The notes beneath the pieces are model-generated. The model ran no database searches and was not told the origin of the DNA. It was given only the letters and a program-made list of their open reading frames with translations. The translations under genes and the position numbers were made by a program. Shown here piece after piece: positions 41,001 through 47,329 of a DNA stretch of 49,714 nucleotides; position 1 is the stretch's first letter, and each line of letters begins with the position of its first letter. The stretch comes from Diploschistes diacapsis (Eukaryota): positions 1 to 49,714 of the forward strand of contig JALAIB010000016.1 of the NCBI GenBank assembly GCA_023645945.1, written 5' to 3'.

Positions 41001-42862
41001 GTTGCAAACCCCCAGGTGAAATTTCGTCCAATAGACTTGGATATACCTATGCAGCAAAGCATGACTTATGAACCTTCTCGCATAGAATGGGTACCTAACC
41101 CGACTACACCTTGCCCCGCAGAACCGCACGTTCCATCGATCCTTCATGGCTGTTCCTAGATCAGAATGGGGATGTCCCCAAATTGGTCAGGAACTAGCGA
41201 TGGCGTAGATTGAAAGTCCATGATTCCTGCCAACGGCCACTGAACTCTATGATGGTTGTAATTTTGTCGACGATTTTAAAGCTTCAAACGCGGCGGTCAA
41301 ATATCACGTTGTATAAGTGAGGAAAACTCACCGAGCACAGTCTTTGCAGAAGATCCACGGCCCAAATCAGCTCGAGCTTTAGCACAGACACAACAATAAG
41401 CATTATAGAGCATTATGGGACATTTTGAATTCATTCAAGTAAAACATGAAATATACAAACCAGTCCAGTTGAAACAAGGGCTGGTTGCTCATGCCAACGG
41501 AACTTGAACTTCAACCTATCACCAAGATAGAAAAGTCCGGTGAAAGTACTATGCTTAGAGCAAAATCATCACATGATGGTCCAGCATGAATTGCATATGG
41601 AGAGAAAAATGCGGTTCAGCTCCGTAGCTTGATGTCGAGGTCCAGATGTCAGTCAATGCGACACAATGTTCGGGGTGTGGAAGAAGCCTGCCAAACGACC
41701 GGGTTCCAAAACCTGGAAAGTCGACTCAAACGCTGTGCTATTCCCCGATATGAAAGTGTCCGTTGGCTTCGGAACGGTGATTCCCACAGTATACGCAAAC
41801 TCTGACCTTCACTGCCACCGAATTGCCTACCAATAAGACGCATAAACATTCCAACCAGCGACTACCAAAGCAAAAACTGCAGTATCTCGGTACCTGTAAT
41901 TTCCAATAAACCCTCTCGCCATTGAACGACAATGTTGTTCCAGTAGAACCTTAAACGCTAATCCAGATTGTCGACCAACATTTTGATCCAAAGATTCTAG
42001 GCTCTGTGTTGCAAAACAGTGCAAACATAATTCATAGCAATGTCAGGCCGAAACCGTTGGAAGGTTCATCGACGGACCGACATTGGATGGTTCTCAGGAA
42101 TTTTGGAGTATCTTTCTGCAGAAAATTAAATTGACGGTCAGCTATGAGCCATTATGGAAGAGCATCTCCCTAAACCGAGATATTTTAGAACCTTTCGCAA
42201 ACCATACGGATACGACGTAGTAGTTGCAGAACGGAAGGAAAGGTTGAAGCTCCTCCAAGACTGACAAAAGACCAGCCACCTTCTTTCTACGCCAGGGCGC
42301 GATCGTGACGCCCGTTAGACTGAGCGAATCTGGCGATTAATTGCACATCAAGGTGGTGGGGGTGCTCCTTGCCTATCCAGCCTAGGGCAGGCAATCCAGG
42401 CTAGGCAGGCACAGAGGTGCGTGTAGATATGGTGCCAGCGAGTTGCAGTGATCACTGGGGGTCTCCAAACGCACCTAGGTGGTCGATATGGGTTACCATG
42501 AAGGGTGCAGAGCAGCGCCACAGGCGCTTGAGGCGTGTTTATAGGCGTATGTCACAGTAGAGGGTGGCAGTGGGTGACTCAGCAGCGCGTGACAGACGCC
42601 TTGTTGTCGTGTGTAGGTCTCGAGGTATCCCAATCCATCTGAAAGCTGTATTGAATGAAATCTTCTAGTTGAACGTGGTTTGGGAAACACAAGTAACTTA
42701 CTATCCAGAGCCACTACAATACAACGAAGGACCTTTTCAAACAACAATTAGTGCCATTGGATTGCTCTAAGTCCCCACTATTCAAAACAAAACGGTATTT
42801 TAACGGTTTCTCCATGGATGGGCATTCGCAAAAATTTTAAACCTAGAAAAGAGCTCATAAAT

Positions 42863-42867
42863 AAAAA
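42863..42867 (-). terminator. Pol III oligo-T terminator of the tRNA-Gln gene
   Basis: TTTTT on the minus strand 11 nt after the discriminator base. Confidence 0.7.
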
Positions 42868-42878
42868 TAATGATTTAC

Positions 42879-42997
42879 AGGTCGATCTGAGACTCGAACT
42901 CAGGTTGCCGGAATCAGAATCCGGAGTCTAACCTTGTTAGACTCTGACCAACATAGAGATCATTAATAACTTACGATAACCGCTACACTAAACGACC
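42879..42997 (-). tRNA. tRNA-Gln(CTG) interrupted by a 47-nt GT-AG intron in the D-stem (exon 1 42997-42975, intron 42974-42928, exon 2 42927-42879)
   Basis: Joined exons give a 72-nt cloverleaf: GGTCGTTTAGTGTAGCGGTTATC|ACTCCGGATTCTGATTCCGGCAACCTGAGTTCGAGTCTCAGATCGACCT. Anticodon stem CCGGA/TCCGG, T stem CTGAG/CTCAG, D stem GTG/CAC, acceptor stem 6/7 pairs, U73 discriminator. Confidence 0.93.
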
Positions 42998-43224
42998 GAT
43001 TATAGATATGATTTGACCTTAATTGTATATACTTTACATACAATAGAATGTCTAAGATAGTTTTGGGGCATTCCGTAGCGGTTCTAGTTATGGATGTATA
43101 AATTCGATCCAATGCGTCCACTTTTGTTGAAGTCATTTGTTCTAAATCATGTAACCAAGGAATTTTAACAGGTTAGTCCTGACCCTTTGGGCTCAAAATA
43201 CCCCAGTACTAGACCTTCAAAGCA

Positions 43225-45199
43225 ATGGAAGGTCGAAATGTAGACGTTAGGGTTCTTGCCCAAGAATGGCTTCGCTTGGACAAGGTAATCTGAATACTCA
43301 CCACAAGGGGGTAGTCTGATATTAAATAGGATTTGGCTACAAGAGCTGAGATCCAAGTTCTCCTGGATCGCGATGACCTATTCGAACTCCAAAAGCGTTT
43401 TCATCCTAGTATGCGACTGTTATACGTTGGATTGGCCGAGTGTGCTCTGACAGGCTGTAGGAATCACATTCGGCACAGCAGGTCTCAGAGCACGCATGGA
43501 AGCTGGCTTTGCCCGTATGAACTGTCTTACTGTCATACAAACCTCGCAAGGGCTCGCAGAGCATCTCCTCAAGTGCTCGAGCAGCAATAACCCGCTAAAA
43601 GTAGTCATCGGATATGATGGCAGGCATTACTCCAAGCGCTTTGCGGAGCTTGCAGCAGCCGCATTCCTTGAAAAAAGCTTCTCGGTCATATGGTTTCGTG
43701 ACGTTGTTCATACTCCTTTAGTACCTTTCGCTGTGCGCACCCAATGTGCAGATGCTGGTGTTATGATCACAGCAAGTCATAATCCCAAAAATGACAATGG
43801 TTACAAGGTATACGTAGGCAATGGATGCCAAATCAACTCTCCACAAGACCAGGCGATCGCTAAGGCCATCATGAAGAATTTAGAGCCAGTCACTTGGAAC
43901 ACCACCAAAGTCTATGGTCTTGAGGATTCATTGGACAGGATTAGAGATGCCTACATCCTCAGTCTTACCCACCCTCTCTGCATTGAAGGTCCGACTCCGC
44001 CGGTTGTGTATACGCCGATGCATGGAGTGGGCTTAGGTTTCTTTATGCTAGCGGCTAATCGCTTGTTATGGAACGTCCATTCCTTCGCTGCAGAGTTACC
44101 GAAAGAAGACCTAGATGGCACTATAGGAGATCTACAACGAAGGACCAAGATCGTCAAAGAGCAAGCCTACCCCGATCCTGAATTCCCCACGGTAGAGTAT
44201 CCAAATCCTGAAGAGCATGGAGCCTTGGATCTTGCAAAAGCGGAAGCAGACAAGCTTGGCTTTAAGCTACTTTTAGCCAACGACCCTGATGCAGATCGGT
44301 TCGCGGCTGCTCAAAAGCTGGAAGATGGCAAATGGTATCAGTTCAAGGGCGACGAAATGGGTGTCATACTTGGGGTGCATGTCTTTGAGAAATGGCGTTC
44401 CAAGCAATTACAGCAAGGAAAACCTCTCATGGTCACATCTGCAGTTTCCTCGCAGATGTTGGCAGCAATAGGTAGACGCGAAGGTTTTGAAGTCCTCGAG
44501 ACCTTGACTGGATTCAAGTGGATTGGGAACGCGGCCCTCGAAGCCGGCAGCAGAGCTCTGTTCGGCTATGAGGAAGCACTAGGGTACATGTTACCGGACA
44601 TCGTCCATGATAAGGATGGCATATCGGCCGCGTACTTGCTTTTGGAGGCTTGTTCGAAGTGGCAGCGTATGCCTTACGAGATGCTCCAGGATCTTTACAG
44701 AAAATATGGCTACTTTGAGACCGCGAATACGTATTGGAAATCGCCAAGTCTGGCTTTGACAAAAGAAACCTTTGAGCACATTCGGGCGAACCCGAGGTCA
44801 ATCCTGCACTCATTGGCTCCTTCCACGCGATGTCGCATCAGAGATGCTATCTCGGGAACCGACACCGGGACAGAGGATGGTCGATCGACATTGCCTTCTG
44901 TGTTAGATAATCTCATGATTACCCTGTGGCTGTCGAGCAGCTTGGAGCTTCAGGAAGGTGTCCGGGTCACTATCAGAGCGTCAGGGACGGAGCCCAAGAT
45001 CAAAGGTAAATACATTCCCAGTAGCTTGATCATCTGTGCTTATAGCGGGATGACAGTATACGTTGAGTGCCAAAGCCGCGTCGGTTCAGCGGAGGCCAAA
45101 TCTGGAGCACTTCTAGTGCTGAGGACTGTTCGACGCGTCTGGTTTTGCCATCCTCGGCTCCAGATGGAGAACAAATATGAAGCTGAAACTCGAAGCTAG
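43225..45199 (+). CDS. Phosphoglucomutase-2/phosphoribomutase (PGM2/Prm15-like), 3 introns
   Basis: MEGRNVDVRVLAQEWLRLDK|DLATRAEI..|ITFGTAGLRARMEAGFARMN, catalytic ITASHNP, metal loop NDPDADR, GYEEALG, RASGTEPKIK. Last intron 45006-45056 is 51 nt and in frame. Confidence 0.9.
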
Positions 45200-45280: not shown

Positions 45281-46829
45281 TCACGGAAGTGCCTCGCCAA
45301 GGGCCTCCATCAAAAACCCATCCTCCCACAACCCCTCCACTCTATCCTGCAGCGGCTCCACGTCGACCATGCCTCTTGCCGTATCCTCCACCCCCTTCAA
45401 CACCCTCAACACGTTGCCTCCAACCACTCCCTTCAACTCCCTCACCGACACGCCCCTTCCGTGCAACTCCCTCACCAGGTCCGGGTACTTGCTCACATCC
45501 TCCAAGCCCTTGGGTCCCTTTGGCATGCCATCGAAGTCGGACCCGAGTCCGACGTGCTCGTAGCCGATCAATTTGCCTATGTGCTCTACGTGGTCCGCGA
45601 TGTCGCCGAGACTCGCCTCAGTCTTGTTCCTACAATTCGTGAATTCAGGGACAAAAGTCACGTGCACCACGCCCCCGTTGGCCTTGACGAGTTGCAGCAC
45701 ATCGTCCGGGACGTTACGCGGGTGGGCGCACACCGCGTACGCGCTGCTGTGGCTGAAGATGATGGGTGCGCGCGTCACATTTAGGGCATCGCGCATGGTG
45801 GCTGGCGAAACGTGCGAGAGGTCGACCATCATGCCGATGCGGTTCATCTCCTGAACCATGGCGACTCCGGCTTCAGAGAGGCCGCCATGGAGAGGCTTGG
45901 CAGGAGAGCAACTGTCGGCATACTTGTTGTGGCAGGAGTGCGTGAGCGTGATGTAACGGACGCCGAGGGCATAGTAGAGGCGCAAAATGGAGGCTGAGTT
46001 GGCGATTTGATGGAGGCCTTCAGCGCCCATGAGGGAGGATATTAAAGAGCTGTTGTGAGGGAGCGAGTGGAACTGGTGCCAGATAGAAGAGGAGGTTAGG
46101 GCGGGGGAGAGGTTGGAAGGAAACCGCGCGTAAAGGCGGTGCACGAGATCGATTTGCTGGAGGGTCTGACGTACGGCGGGAAGGTAGACGGCGTTGGAGT
46201 AGTCGTCCTTCGTGGCCGGAAAGACATCTTCGGGGCTAGTGGGAAAGGTCTGTGTTAACAGGGTCGACGTGAGGCATGGAAGATGCGATGGTTTAGTGAC
46301 AGACGCTTACCAGCCCACGTAGACGCTCCAGAACTGGCCGCGGACGCCGCCCTGATGTAGTCTCGGGAAGTCGACCTGGCCGAAGAGCTCGGACGTGTTC
46401 GTGAAGTTCTTCTGCTGCAAGTCGTTCTTGTAGAAGGCACGGATCCAAATTGGGAAGTCGTTATGCGTATCTGGACTCGGGTCAGTGAGCTGAAAGTTCG
46501 AGAGCCGCTTGCGACCCAGCATTGTGTGAGGGCTTGTTGTAACCTATCAAGGGCGCACCCCGGAGCACAGCTTCTACGGGATCTGACGGCCGAGTTACTG
46601 AATCGTACAGACACCTGGCTAGTTCGCTGCGGCGGGTGCTGAAGAAGTATGAAAGTATGCAAAGGAAAGGGAGCACGGTGGTGATGAGCAACAGTCTTCT
46701 TCGCCGGCTGGTGGCAGGGCCGATATTGATCAGCCCTTTCTGGCCGGCGCTCTCGCTCGGTATCTCGACTTGGCCGTAGTTGATGTTGAGTGCTCCTTTC
46801 TGGGAGACGGAGTCTTGGGGCTCTGCCAT
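45281..46829 (-). CDS. Membrane dipeptidase (peptidase M19), type II membrane anchor, 2 introns
   Basis: TM segment after RRRR, PLI|DTHNDFP, GQVDFPRLHQGGVRGQFWSVY, GAEGLHQI, LGVRYITLTHSC, MVDLSHVS, FSHSS, VGLGSDFDG. Confidence 0.92.
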
Positions 46830-47329
46830 GTCGTTGTGTTAGGCTTGTGTTAGTTGCATGTGCAACAACCCAATCTTATATTGGGTAACGGGTCGCTATA
46901 TTGGAAGAGAGAGAGGATGCAGTGGATTAGTAATTATGGGGCCTCCGTAGCAGAAGCACTGGCTCCAGCAAAGGGCCCGGCCCGGATGTAATATCCCCCC
47001 CATTCACTCGAAATTACTGTAGATTTCATCTATGTGTACGTTGGAGATTGATTTGTACAAATTTTGATCAAACAATTGCAAACAATTTGCGTTCTCGAGT
47101 AATATCGCTGACAGCAATGGCTGCTGCTGAAGTTTCAACAAAAGGAAGACGAGGCCAGAAGGCAGGTGAGCACGTGATTGTGGGCGGGTATAAGCCATCT
47201 CTCGAAATTGCATCCCTAATCGTTTTCTTTCTTTCTTTATAAATAGATGTAACCGCCAACGCCATGCTGTACAGAGCTCCATACCAAACGGACGACAGGA
47301 TGCTAGATAGAAGTGCCGTTTCTATTTCA

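Follow-up and report, generated by a model that had tools for sequence, protein, structure and literature searches.

The window analysed here is a stretch of 49,714 nucleotides (nt) from the lichen-associated ascomycete Diploschistes diacapsis (contig JALAIB010000016.1 of assembly GCA_023645945.1, positions 1 to 49,714). On its minus strand, at 42997-42879, lies a transfer RNA gene for glutamine, tRNA-Gln(CUG), that is split between tRNA positions 23 and 24 by an insert of 47 nt. The insert looks like a spliceosomal intron of the kind found in messenger RNA (mRNA) genes. A preliminary description, written from the letters of the window, had reported this split gene and its GTAAGT/CTAAC/TAG insert; its coordinates and letters are as it gave them, and the strand is minus. 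Three features set out below go beyond that description: a 9-bp hairpin kept by a compensatory change, a likeness of the insert to the 47 nt before it, and a similar intron at the same site in another lineage.

Anatomy of the split gene

Exon 1 (42975..42997, minus strand, 23 nt) comprises tRNA positions 1-23, as judged from the sequence and from the cloverleaf that forms on joining. It contains the 5' strand of the acceptor stem, U8, the 5' strand of the D-stem, the D-loop with its GG, and the first two bases of the 3' strand of the D-stem. Exon 2 (42879..42927, minus strand, 49 nt), which is recognisable from the sequence, from an Rfam match and from the joined cloverleaf, comprises tRNA positions 24-73 and supplies the rest of the D-stem, the anticodon arm with CUG, a variable region of 4 nt, the T arm, the 3' strand of the acceptor stem and U73. 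Between them, the insert (42928..42974, minus strand) opens with the putative 5' splice site GTAAGT (42969..42974) and closes with the putative 3' splice site TAG (42928..42930). The branch-site motif CTAAC (42936..42940) is separated from the end of the insert by 8 nt, which places the presumed branch adenosine at 42937, 9 nt before the 3' junction.

The signals expected for transcription by RNA polymerase III (Pol III) are distributed over both exons and the 3' flank. The A-box region (approximately 42979-42990, minus strand) lies inside exon 1 and the B-box region (approximately 42889-42901, minus strand) inside exon 2. A run of five T residues (T5; 42863..42867, minus strand), 12-16 nt past the 3' end of the tRNA, resembles a Pol III terminator and probably acts as one; the insert itself contains no T run longer than two. 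By its A- and B-box regions and the T5 run, the host of the insert is a Pol III-type gene, and not the RNA polymerase II (Pol II) host that is usual for a spliceosomal intron.

When the two exons were joined by their coordinates in a script, ARAGORN reported a tRNA-Gln(ctg) of 72 bases, so that exact GT-AG removal does restore the tRNA, as had been proposed. On the raw sequence the same program called no tRNA gene anywhere in the 49,714-base window, and the unjoined stretch submitted separately was likewise not called. Rfam produced a single match, 42949..42879, with 34.1 bits (gathering score 29), but for its 5' half, which is a poor one, this match draws on the 3' part of the insert; two model positions are absent and the acceptor stem contains mismatches. 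The expectation that standard tRNA finders would miss or mis-call the gene is therefore borne out by both programs, ARAGORN giving nothing and Rfam the wrong 5' half. With the option -i, ARAGORN called the unjoined stretch as tRNA-Ile(aat), a call that we rejected as an artefact of a forced anticodon-loop intron.

Splice signals and local introns

We measured how often such a set of signals occurs by chance with a strict test, which requires a 47-mer to start with GTAAGT, to end with YAG, and to contain CTRAY with its A 6-20 nt from the end. Among the 99,336 47-mers on both strands of the window, exactly one passes, and it is the insert itself; a relaxed version of the test is passed by two. 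In its GTRAGT-like 5' end, its CTRAY branch motif, its YAG 3' end and its length, the insert agrees with GT-AG introns of the U2 type.

The mRNA introns used for comparison are in the divergently oriented neighbour, a gene of the phosphoglucomutase family (43225..45199, plus strand; Pfam PGM_PMM_I, II and III, E from 1.7e-37 to 9.3e-17), whose ATG at 43225 is 227 nt from the 5' end of the tRNA. Two introns near its 5' end are recognisable from continuity of the reading frame, one of 45 nt (43285-43329, plus strand) and one of 52 nt (43409-43460, plus strand). The preliminary description had called the insert similar in size to the mRNA introns of the window, and its 47 nt do fall between these two lengths. 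The distance from branch to intron end is 10 in each of the two introns and 9 in the tRNA insert, and the consensus signals of the insert are better than those of either. Across the window as a whole, 38 intron candidates were found from signals and frame, spanning 34-112 nt; this list includes false positives as well as the insert itself.

Sequence conservation at the locus

Three DNA data sets contain the locus: a lichen metagenome (X1), which matches the window best and may be its source; organism A (X2), with a share of 0.45; and a rock metagenome (X3), with a share of 0.27. Nothing from two further runs (X4 and X5) could be placed on it. In both X2 and X3, contigs run unbroken across the gene with the 47-nt insert in place, and the insert is therefore not an artefact of assembly. 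We found no joint skipping the 47 nt in the contigs of X2 and X3 that would indicate an intron-less allele, a result in which the 23-nt side cannot exclude intron-less paralogues.

The X2 record consists of 274 letters over 42822-43091, in which 18 letters differ, 15 of them listed, and two gaps occur, both listed. Since the listing covers only differences away from contig ends, the three unlisted ones should sit at the ends. In X2, none of the 72 exon bases is changed, compared with 13 of 151 flank bases, which also carry two 1-base insertions (Fisher p 0.005). The comparison indicates that purifying selection has acted on both halves of the tRNA after the insert was in place. The only two changes within the gene, at 42936 and 42932, are in the insert. 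GTAAGT and TAG are unchanged, and the change at 42936 turns CTAAC into CTAAT, which still agrees with CTRAY. The preliminary description had pointed to orthologues in which the splice signals decay while the exons drift as the pattern of a dead insertion; X2 presents the opposite picture, with unchanged exons, diverging flanks and retained signals.

The rock metagenome is the weaker of these data sets: its contig of 306 letters over 42861-43162 has a depth of only 3.8. Of its listed substitutions, one is in the insert (42950) and 16 are in the flanks; the exons have none, and neither splice site is affected by any of them. The T5 run shows no listed change in X2 or in X3.

Several further differences were noted in the contigs of X2. 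A 20-nt insertion occurs behind 42821, and stretches between the tRNA gene and the start of the phosphoglucomutase-family gene (43091-43200) are replaced or deleted. Over 42678-42849 there are two contig variants of different depths, so that X2 may hold two alleles or strains.

Similar genes in environmental contigs

We scanned metagenome contigs for a pattern made up of the final 16 bases of exon 1 and an adjoining GTNNGT, and obtained three loci, which we refer to as L001, L002 and L003. The junction pattern had no match in a collection of genome contigs and none in a collection of viral contigs.

L003 (269-402, minus strand of the locus) is an intact tRNA-Gln(CUG) with a different acceptor stem, in which 7 of 7 base pairs (bp) are formed. 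This second lineage has the same layout as the window gene: the tRNA is interrupted at 23/24 by an insert of 49 nt with the arrangement GTAAGT..TAGTAAC..AAG, the A being 11 nt from the end. By our own reading of the anticodon arm, a second insert of 13 nt occupies the ordinary site at 37/38, and a T7 run follows. This gene thus seems to carry two introns of different kinds, a GT-AG intron at 23/24 and an ordinary one at 37/38. After removal of the 49 nt in a script, ARAGORN reports tRNA-Gln(ctg) and draws the 37/38 insert as an extra arm; its -i call of the unjoined stretch as tRNA-Arg(tct) is again an artefact of a forced anticodon-loop intron.

L001 (1494-1640) is a relative of the L003 locus, with 80.7 % identity over 393 columns, and has an anticodon loop of the UUG type. 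Its insert begins with GTAAGT, contains the branch motif GTGAC, which differs from that of L003 only at the R position, and ends with TAG. Its T arm is partly missing and no tool calls a tRNA; L001 is, on this evidence, a dead copy that still displays intron signals.

The third match, L002, was rejected: no 3' half of a tRNA follows the match, a T4 run lies inside, and neither Rfam nor ARAGORN finds anything. We also set aside the similarity of the inserts to one another (0.037 for the window insert against L003 and 0.0055 against L001) as evidence of homology, because common splice signals inflate such scores.

L001 and L003 resemble each other only over a region that starts approximately 55 nt upstream of the tRNA and continues to the contig end. 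Elsewhere, L003 has a match to a 62-nt piece of L001 (1208-1269), and a repeat may adjoin these genes. Downstream of the L003 tRNA gene is a long, nearly perfect inverted repeat (L003:23-106), for which Rfam suggested mir-515 with 31.7 bits against a gathering score of 68, surely a false name. Pfam found no family in any of the four open reading frames (ORFs) of L001 and L003 that were tried, and an Atlas look-up of the 175-aa ORF of L001 returned only unnamed clusters of bacterial type, with low recognition.

Secondary structure of the insert

Every fold of the precursor that we computed contains a perfect hairpin of 9 bp with a 3-nt loop (42924..42944, minus strand), in which intron positions 31-39 pair with intron positions 43-47 and with positions 24-27 of exon 2. 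The insert with 8 additional nt folds at -15.5 kcal/mol (z -2.74), and 2 of 200 shuffled sequences reach this stability. Both the branch site and the 3' splice site are enclosed in the hairpin, whose unbroken helix runs across the 3' junction.

The two changes in the X2 insert affect this hairpin directly. On the plus strand they read 42936 G>A and 42932 C>T; the affected bases are the partners of its closing pair, which is converted from C-G to U-A. As a rough estimate, inferred and not obtained from a computed test, two random substitutions in 47 nt would form such a pair a few times per thousand. The hairpin therefore seems to matter, and seems to be kept by selection. In L003 it has no counterpart: the insert there forms no hairpin and folds at only -2.1 kcal/mol (z +2.04). 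What the window gene and L003 have in common is the set of putative splice signals, and not the fold.

A hairpin under apparent selection raises the question of a protein route. The gene might be alive and its insert cut out by an endonuclease, either a relaxed tRNA splicing endonuclease or another structure-specific nuclease, that uses the hairpin as a landmark, with a tRNA ligase joining the halves and the GT-AG signals being leftovers of the origin of the insert. The hairpin is the sole feature of the intron with direct evidence of selection (the C-G to U-A exchange in X2), a helix that encloses the branch site along with the 3' junction fits poorly with spliceosomal removal, and tRNA introns are described, in the accessible text of PMC10275265 and PMC12530127, as removed by protein enzymes. 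Yet the bulge-helix-bulge (BHB) motif on which such enzymes would be expected to act is absent, even in approximate form, from the window gene, L003 and L001. Of the four pairs that a central helix in the canonical register requires, the window gene can form two, both of them G.U, L003 none and L001 one, and the sole candidate with all four pairs is off-register and consists of G.U pairs throughout. The 3' junction lies in the unbroken 9-bp helix and not in a bulge. We accordingly rejected a BHB reading, and the statement of the preliminary description that no BHB can be built at the insert stands. The insert also departs from protein-spliced tRNA introns in its site, 23/24 rather than 37/38. 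L003 keeps GTAAGT, a branch motif and AG in an insert that lacks the hairpin, and removal by protein enzymes leaves the perfect, conserved GTAAGT/CTRAY/YAG set without a reason. Inspection of the junctions by eye showed no loop pattern of the Ire1 (HAC1) type, and junctions of this kind were rejected on that inspection. We consider removal by a protein route quite unlikely.

A group I or group II intron was rejected on size, as the insert has only 47 nt.

The hairpin also enters into a different reading of the locus, which takes the Rfam match at face value. The tetranucleotide GGTC occurs twice, at tRNA positions 1-4 (42997-42994) and at insert positions 26-29 (from 42949), and two 5' strands can therefore compete for the 3' strand of the acceptor in the precursor. 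If the inner one prevailed, the product would be a 71-nt tRNA-like RNA (42949..42879): exon 1 would serve only as an A-box promoter and leader, RNase P would cut before the internal GGTC, and the hairpin would replace the D-arm. The Rfam score above the gathering score is in keeping with such a product, as are the minimum-energy fold, which places the hairpin at the site of the D-arm, and the hairpin and internal GGTC, in which no substitution is listed beyond the compensatory pair of X2. The RNA would nevertheless be a poor tRNA, with an acceptor stem of only four Watson-Crick pairs and one G.U, the two missing model positions, and neither U8 nor a normal D-loop; it goes uncalled by ARAGORN, while the joined exons give a normal cloverleaf. 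Nor does it explain why exon 1 has kept all of its 23 bases in X2 or why GTAAGT starts exactly after position 23. In L003, the alternative tRNA-like fold reaches only 23.1 bits in Rfam, below the gathering score, and is thus not comparable. Such a product is in our view very improbable.

A possible source of the insert

The 47 nt that precede the insert (42975..43021, minus strand) consist of 24 nt of leader (-24 to -1) and tRNA positions 1-23, and global alignment suggests this segment as the parent of the insert. The two are of equal length and align end to end and colinearly, with 31 of 51 columns identical. The alignment score was reached by a fraction of 0.007 of 10,000 shuffled inserts and by 0.0008 of 10,000 random 47-mers from the window; the corresponding value for the control alignment of the insert with the following 47 nt was 0.31. 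These fractions have to be read with the knowledge that the test was picked post hoc, prompted by the alternative alignment of Rfam. In the alignment, TAAGGT of the leader corresponds to GTAAGT, the A-box bases of the copy to the branch motif, and the D-arm of the copy to the long hairpin. We regard the case for the insert as a tandem copy of this segment that has since decayed as good but not conclusive. A decayed copy of this kind would explain how Rfam can read a second, poor 5' half. The inserts of L003 and L001 show no significant similarity to their own preceding units (0.09 and 0.37). Dispersed, introner-like copies were sought with blastn-short: within the 49.7 kb of the window the insert occurs only once, and no match elsewhere is longer than 11 nt.

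The state of the two copies bears on whether the gene is alive. The upstream copy is a flawless tRNA half and the downstream copy has decayed, which argues that the upstream copy is the one in use, and its use requires the removal of exactly 47 nt. Alternatively, the tRNA could be dead: a duplication or insertion of 47 nt would have broken the gene, and the pieces would be unchanged either because they are kept for another purpose, such as a TFIIIC site or boundary element beside the phosphoglucomutase promoter, or because the compared lineages are too close. It is consistent with a dead gene that ARAGORN does not call the locus, that the acceptor stem contains a U.U mismatch, that L001 is a broken copy which has retained intron-like signals, and that the comparison is limited to two relatives, one of them with unlisted indels. 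Asymmetric decay of the tandem copies, the upstream one remaining perfect, is not what a dead gene predicts. The excess of changes in the X2 flanks over the exons (13 of 151 and two indels against 0 of 72, p 0.005) also speaks against it, and the A and B boxes alone span only about one third of the unchanged exons. So do the perfect consensus signals exactly at the junctions defined by the tRNA, which the strict test finds once in 99,336 47-mers. On balance, we regard a dead tRNA as unlikely.

Relation to known introns

Introns of eukaryotes fall into three types that, according to the accessible text of a 2025 paper (PMC12530127), appear completely unrelated. Canonical tRNA introns of eukaryotes are located at 37/38, are removed by the tRNA splicing endonuclease and a ligase, and have no conserved terminal motifs, as stated in the part of a 2023 review open to us (PMC10275265). 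The window insert resembles them in interrupting a nuclear tRNA gene, and L003 appears to have one of them (13 nt) in addition; it is unlike them in position, in structure and in the presence of terminal motifs. Ectopic tRNA introns that are cut at a BHB, known from archaea and from Cyanidioschyzon merolae (PMC3728597, accessible portion), are a closer parallel in that they lie outside 37/38, the D-arm included, and are hidden from tRNA finders. These introns lack sequence signals and depend on the BHB, whereas the window insert has no BHB and matches the consensus of mRNA introns.

Introns of the mRNA type have been found in several genes that do not encode proteins. The list in the accessible text of PMC5855946 comprises fungal U6 (Schizosaccharomyces pombe and others; Tani and Ohshima 1989, 1991), U1, U2, U5 and ribosomal RNA (rRNA) genes, and no tRNA is among them. 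The U6 introns are similar to the window insert: they are short, of the GT-AG type and branch-bearing, they reside in the gene of a small, structured Pol III RNA, and their removal is needed for function. U6 differs in being a component of the spliceosome's catalytic centre, and reverse splicing is the presumed origin of its introns (PMC5855946, same extract). The tRNA has no such proximity to the centre of the spliceosome, and the window insert looks like a tandem duplication.

The ribosomal DNA (rDNA) introns of lichen-forming ascomycetes (Bhattacharya et al. 2000) provide a second parallel, being short, ectopic introns of spliceosomal type in non-Pol II genes from the same ecological group, the lichens. 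One such intron was removed from Pol I transcripts in yeast, as related in the accessible part of PMC8527467. The host there is a Pol I rRNA and the removal is experimentally known, whereas the host here is a 72-nt Pol III tRNA with a putative intron. Together, the fungal U6, small nuclear RNA (snRNA) and rRNA introns and the yeast Pol I case show, within the accessible parts of PMC5855946 and PMC8527467, that spliceosomes can act on RNAs not made by Pol II.

Introns born by duplication form a third group for comparison (PMC3265369 and PMC4974935, as far as their accessible text goes). As in those cases, the length of the window insert equals the length of the duplicated unit, and splicing out one unit restores the product. 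The known examples come from protein-coding genes. In the window gene the likeness is an old one, at 31 of 51 columns, and further changes were required to make the splice sites.

The preliminary description knew of no report of a spliceosomal intron in a tRNA, and our full-text search of the literature likewise returned no paper describing one in a tRNA gene, with thin coverage of subscription journals. To our knowledge, the window gene would be the first tRNA gene among the non-coding, non-Pol II genes with an mRNA-type intron.

Splicing model

We consider it rather probable that this tRNA-Gln(CUG) gene is live, is of the Pol III type and contains a spliceosomal-type intron (U2-type, GT-AG) between positions 23 and 24. 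Transcription by Pol III, with TFIIIC, would rely on the A box of exon 1 and the B box of exon 2, both of them intact, and would stop at the T5 run. The precursor is predicted to fold with its acceptor, anticodon and T arms in place and with the 9-bp hairpin instead of the D-arm. The spliceosome would then recognise GTAAGT, the branch adenosine at 42937 and TAG, release the intron as a lariat and join C23 to A24, and this joining would let the true D-arm form. As for its origin, sequence similarity suggests a tandem duplication of the 47-nt unit made up of leader and tRNA positions 1-23. The upstream copy would have become exon 1, and the downstream copy would have decayed, its A-box region giving rise to the branch site.

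A number of observations weigh against splicing by the spliceosome. One concerns the hairpin: if it is selected, it buries the branch and the 3' splice site and should hinder the binding of U2, and it hints at a structure-dependent step for which the model has no explanation. The unexplained conserved hairpin is one reason why our confidence in the spliceosomal reading is no higher. The last three bases of exon 1 (ATC) are unlike the usual exon side of a 5' splice site, and the 5' exon has only 23 nt and would be at the end of an uncapped Pol III transcript. The mature acceptor stem, as drawn by ARAGORN on the joined exons, contains one mismatch (U6.U67). In X2, the insert by itself shows no significant excess of conservation over the flanks (2 changes in 47 nt versus 13 in 151 nt, p 0.26). 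The X3 alignment has eight unlisted gap columns, with approximately six inserted letters that could not be placed, and a dip in depth suggests a deletion of 2 nt within 42936-42959 (intron positions 16-39). The site at 23/24 common to the environmental loci was forced by the scan pattern and says nothing about the frequency of other sites. Finally, splice signals can outlast function, as L001 has a broken T arm and yet retains GTAAGT, a branch-like motif and TAG.

A broader proposal, on which we are evenly divided, is that the gene represents an overlooked class of nuclear tRNA genes that depend on the spliceosome. For the window gene it would entail a lariat at A42937, an intron born by duplication and a selected hairpin that gates the branch and the 3' splice site; similar introns would exist in other eukaryotic lineages, as suggested by L003, and the class would have stayed hidden since finders allow only introns at 37/38 or a BHB.

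If spliceosomal removal is correct, a tRNA that depends on the spliceosome would break the division between tRNA introns and spliceosomal introns that is drawn in the accessible text of PMC12530127 and PMC10275265, and tRNA would join U6, other snRNAs and rRNA among the few RNAs not made by Pol II that have mRNA-type introns. Decoding of CAG codons would be tied to the activity of the spliceosome. The locus would also document the birth of an intron with unusual clarity, since the exact bases of its junctions are set by the tRNA fold and its parent unit adjoins it. The tRNA gene sets of lichen fungi, and perhaps of other eukaryotes, may be missing genes that are invisible to standard tools.

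Flanking regions

On the 3' side of the tRNA gene, the ORF list gives no long frame, on one strand or the other, for approximately 1.6 kb (41200-42870). On the other side, beyond the phosphoglucomutase-family gene and tail to tail with it, is a membrane dipeptidase gene (45281-46875, minus strand; Pfam Peptidase_M19, E 9.3e-93).

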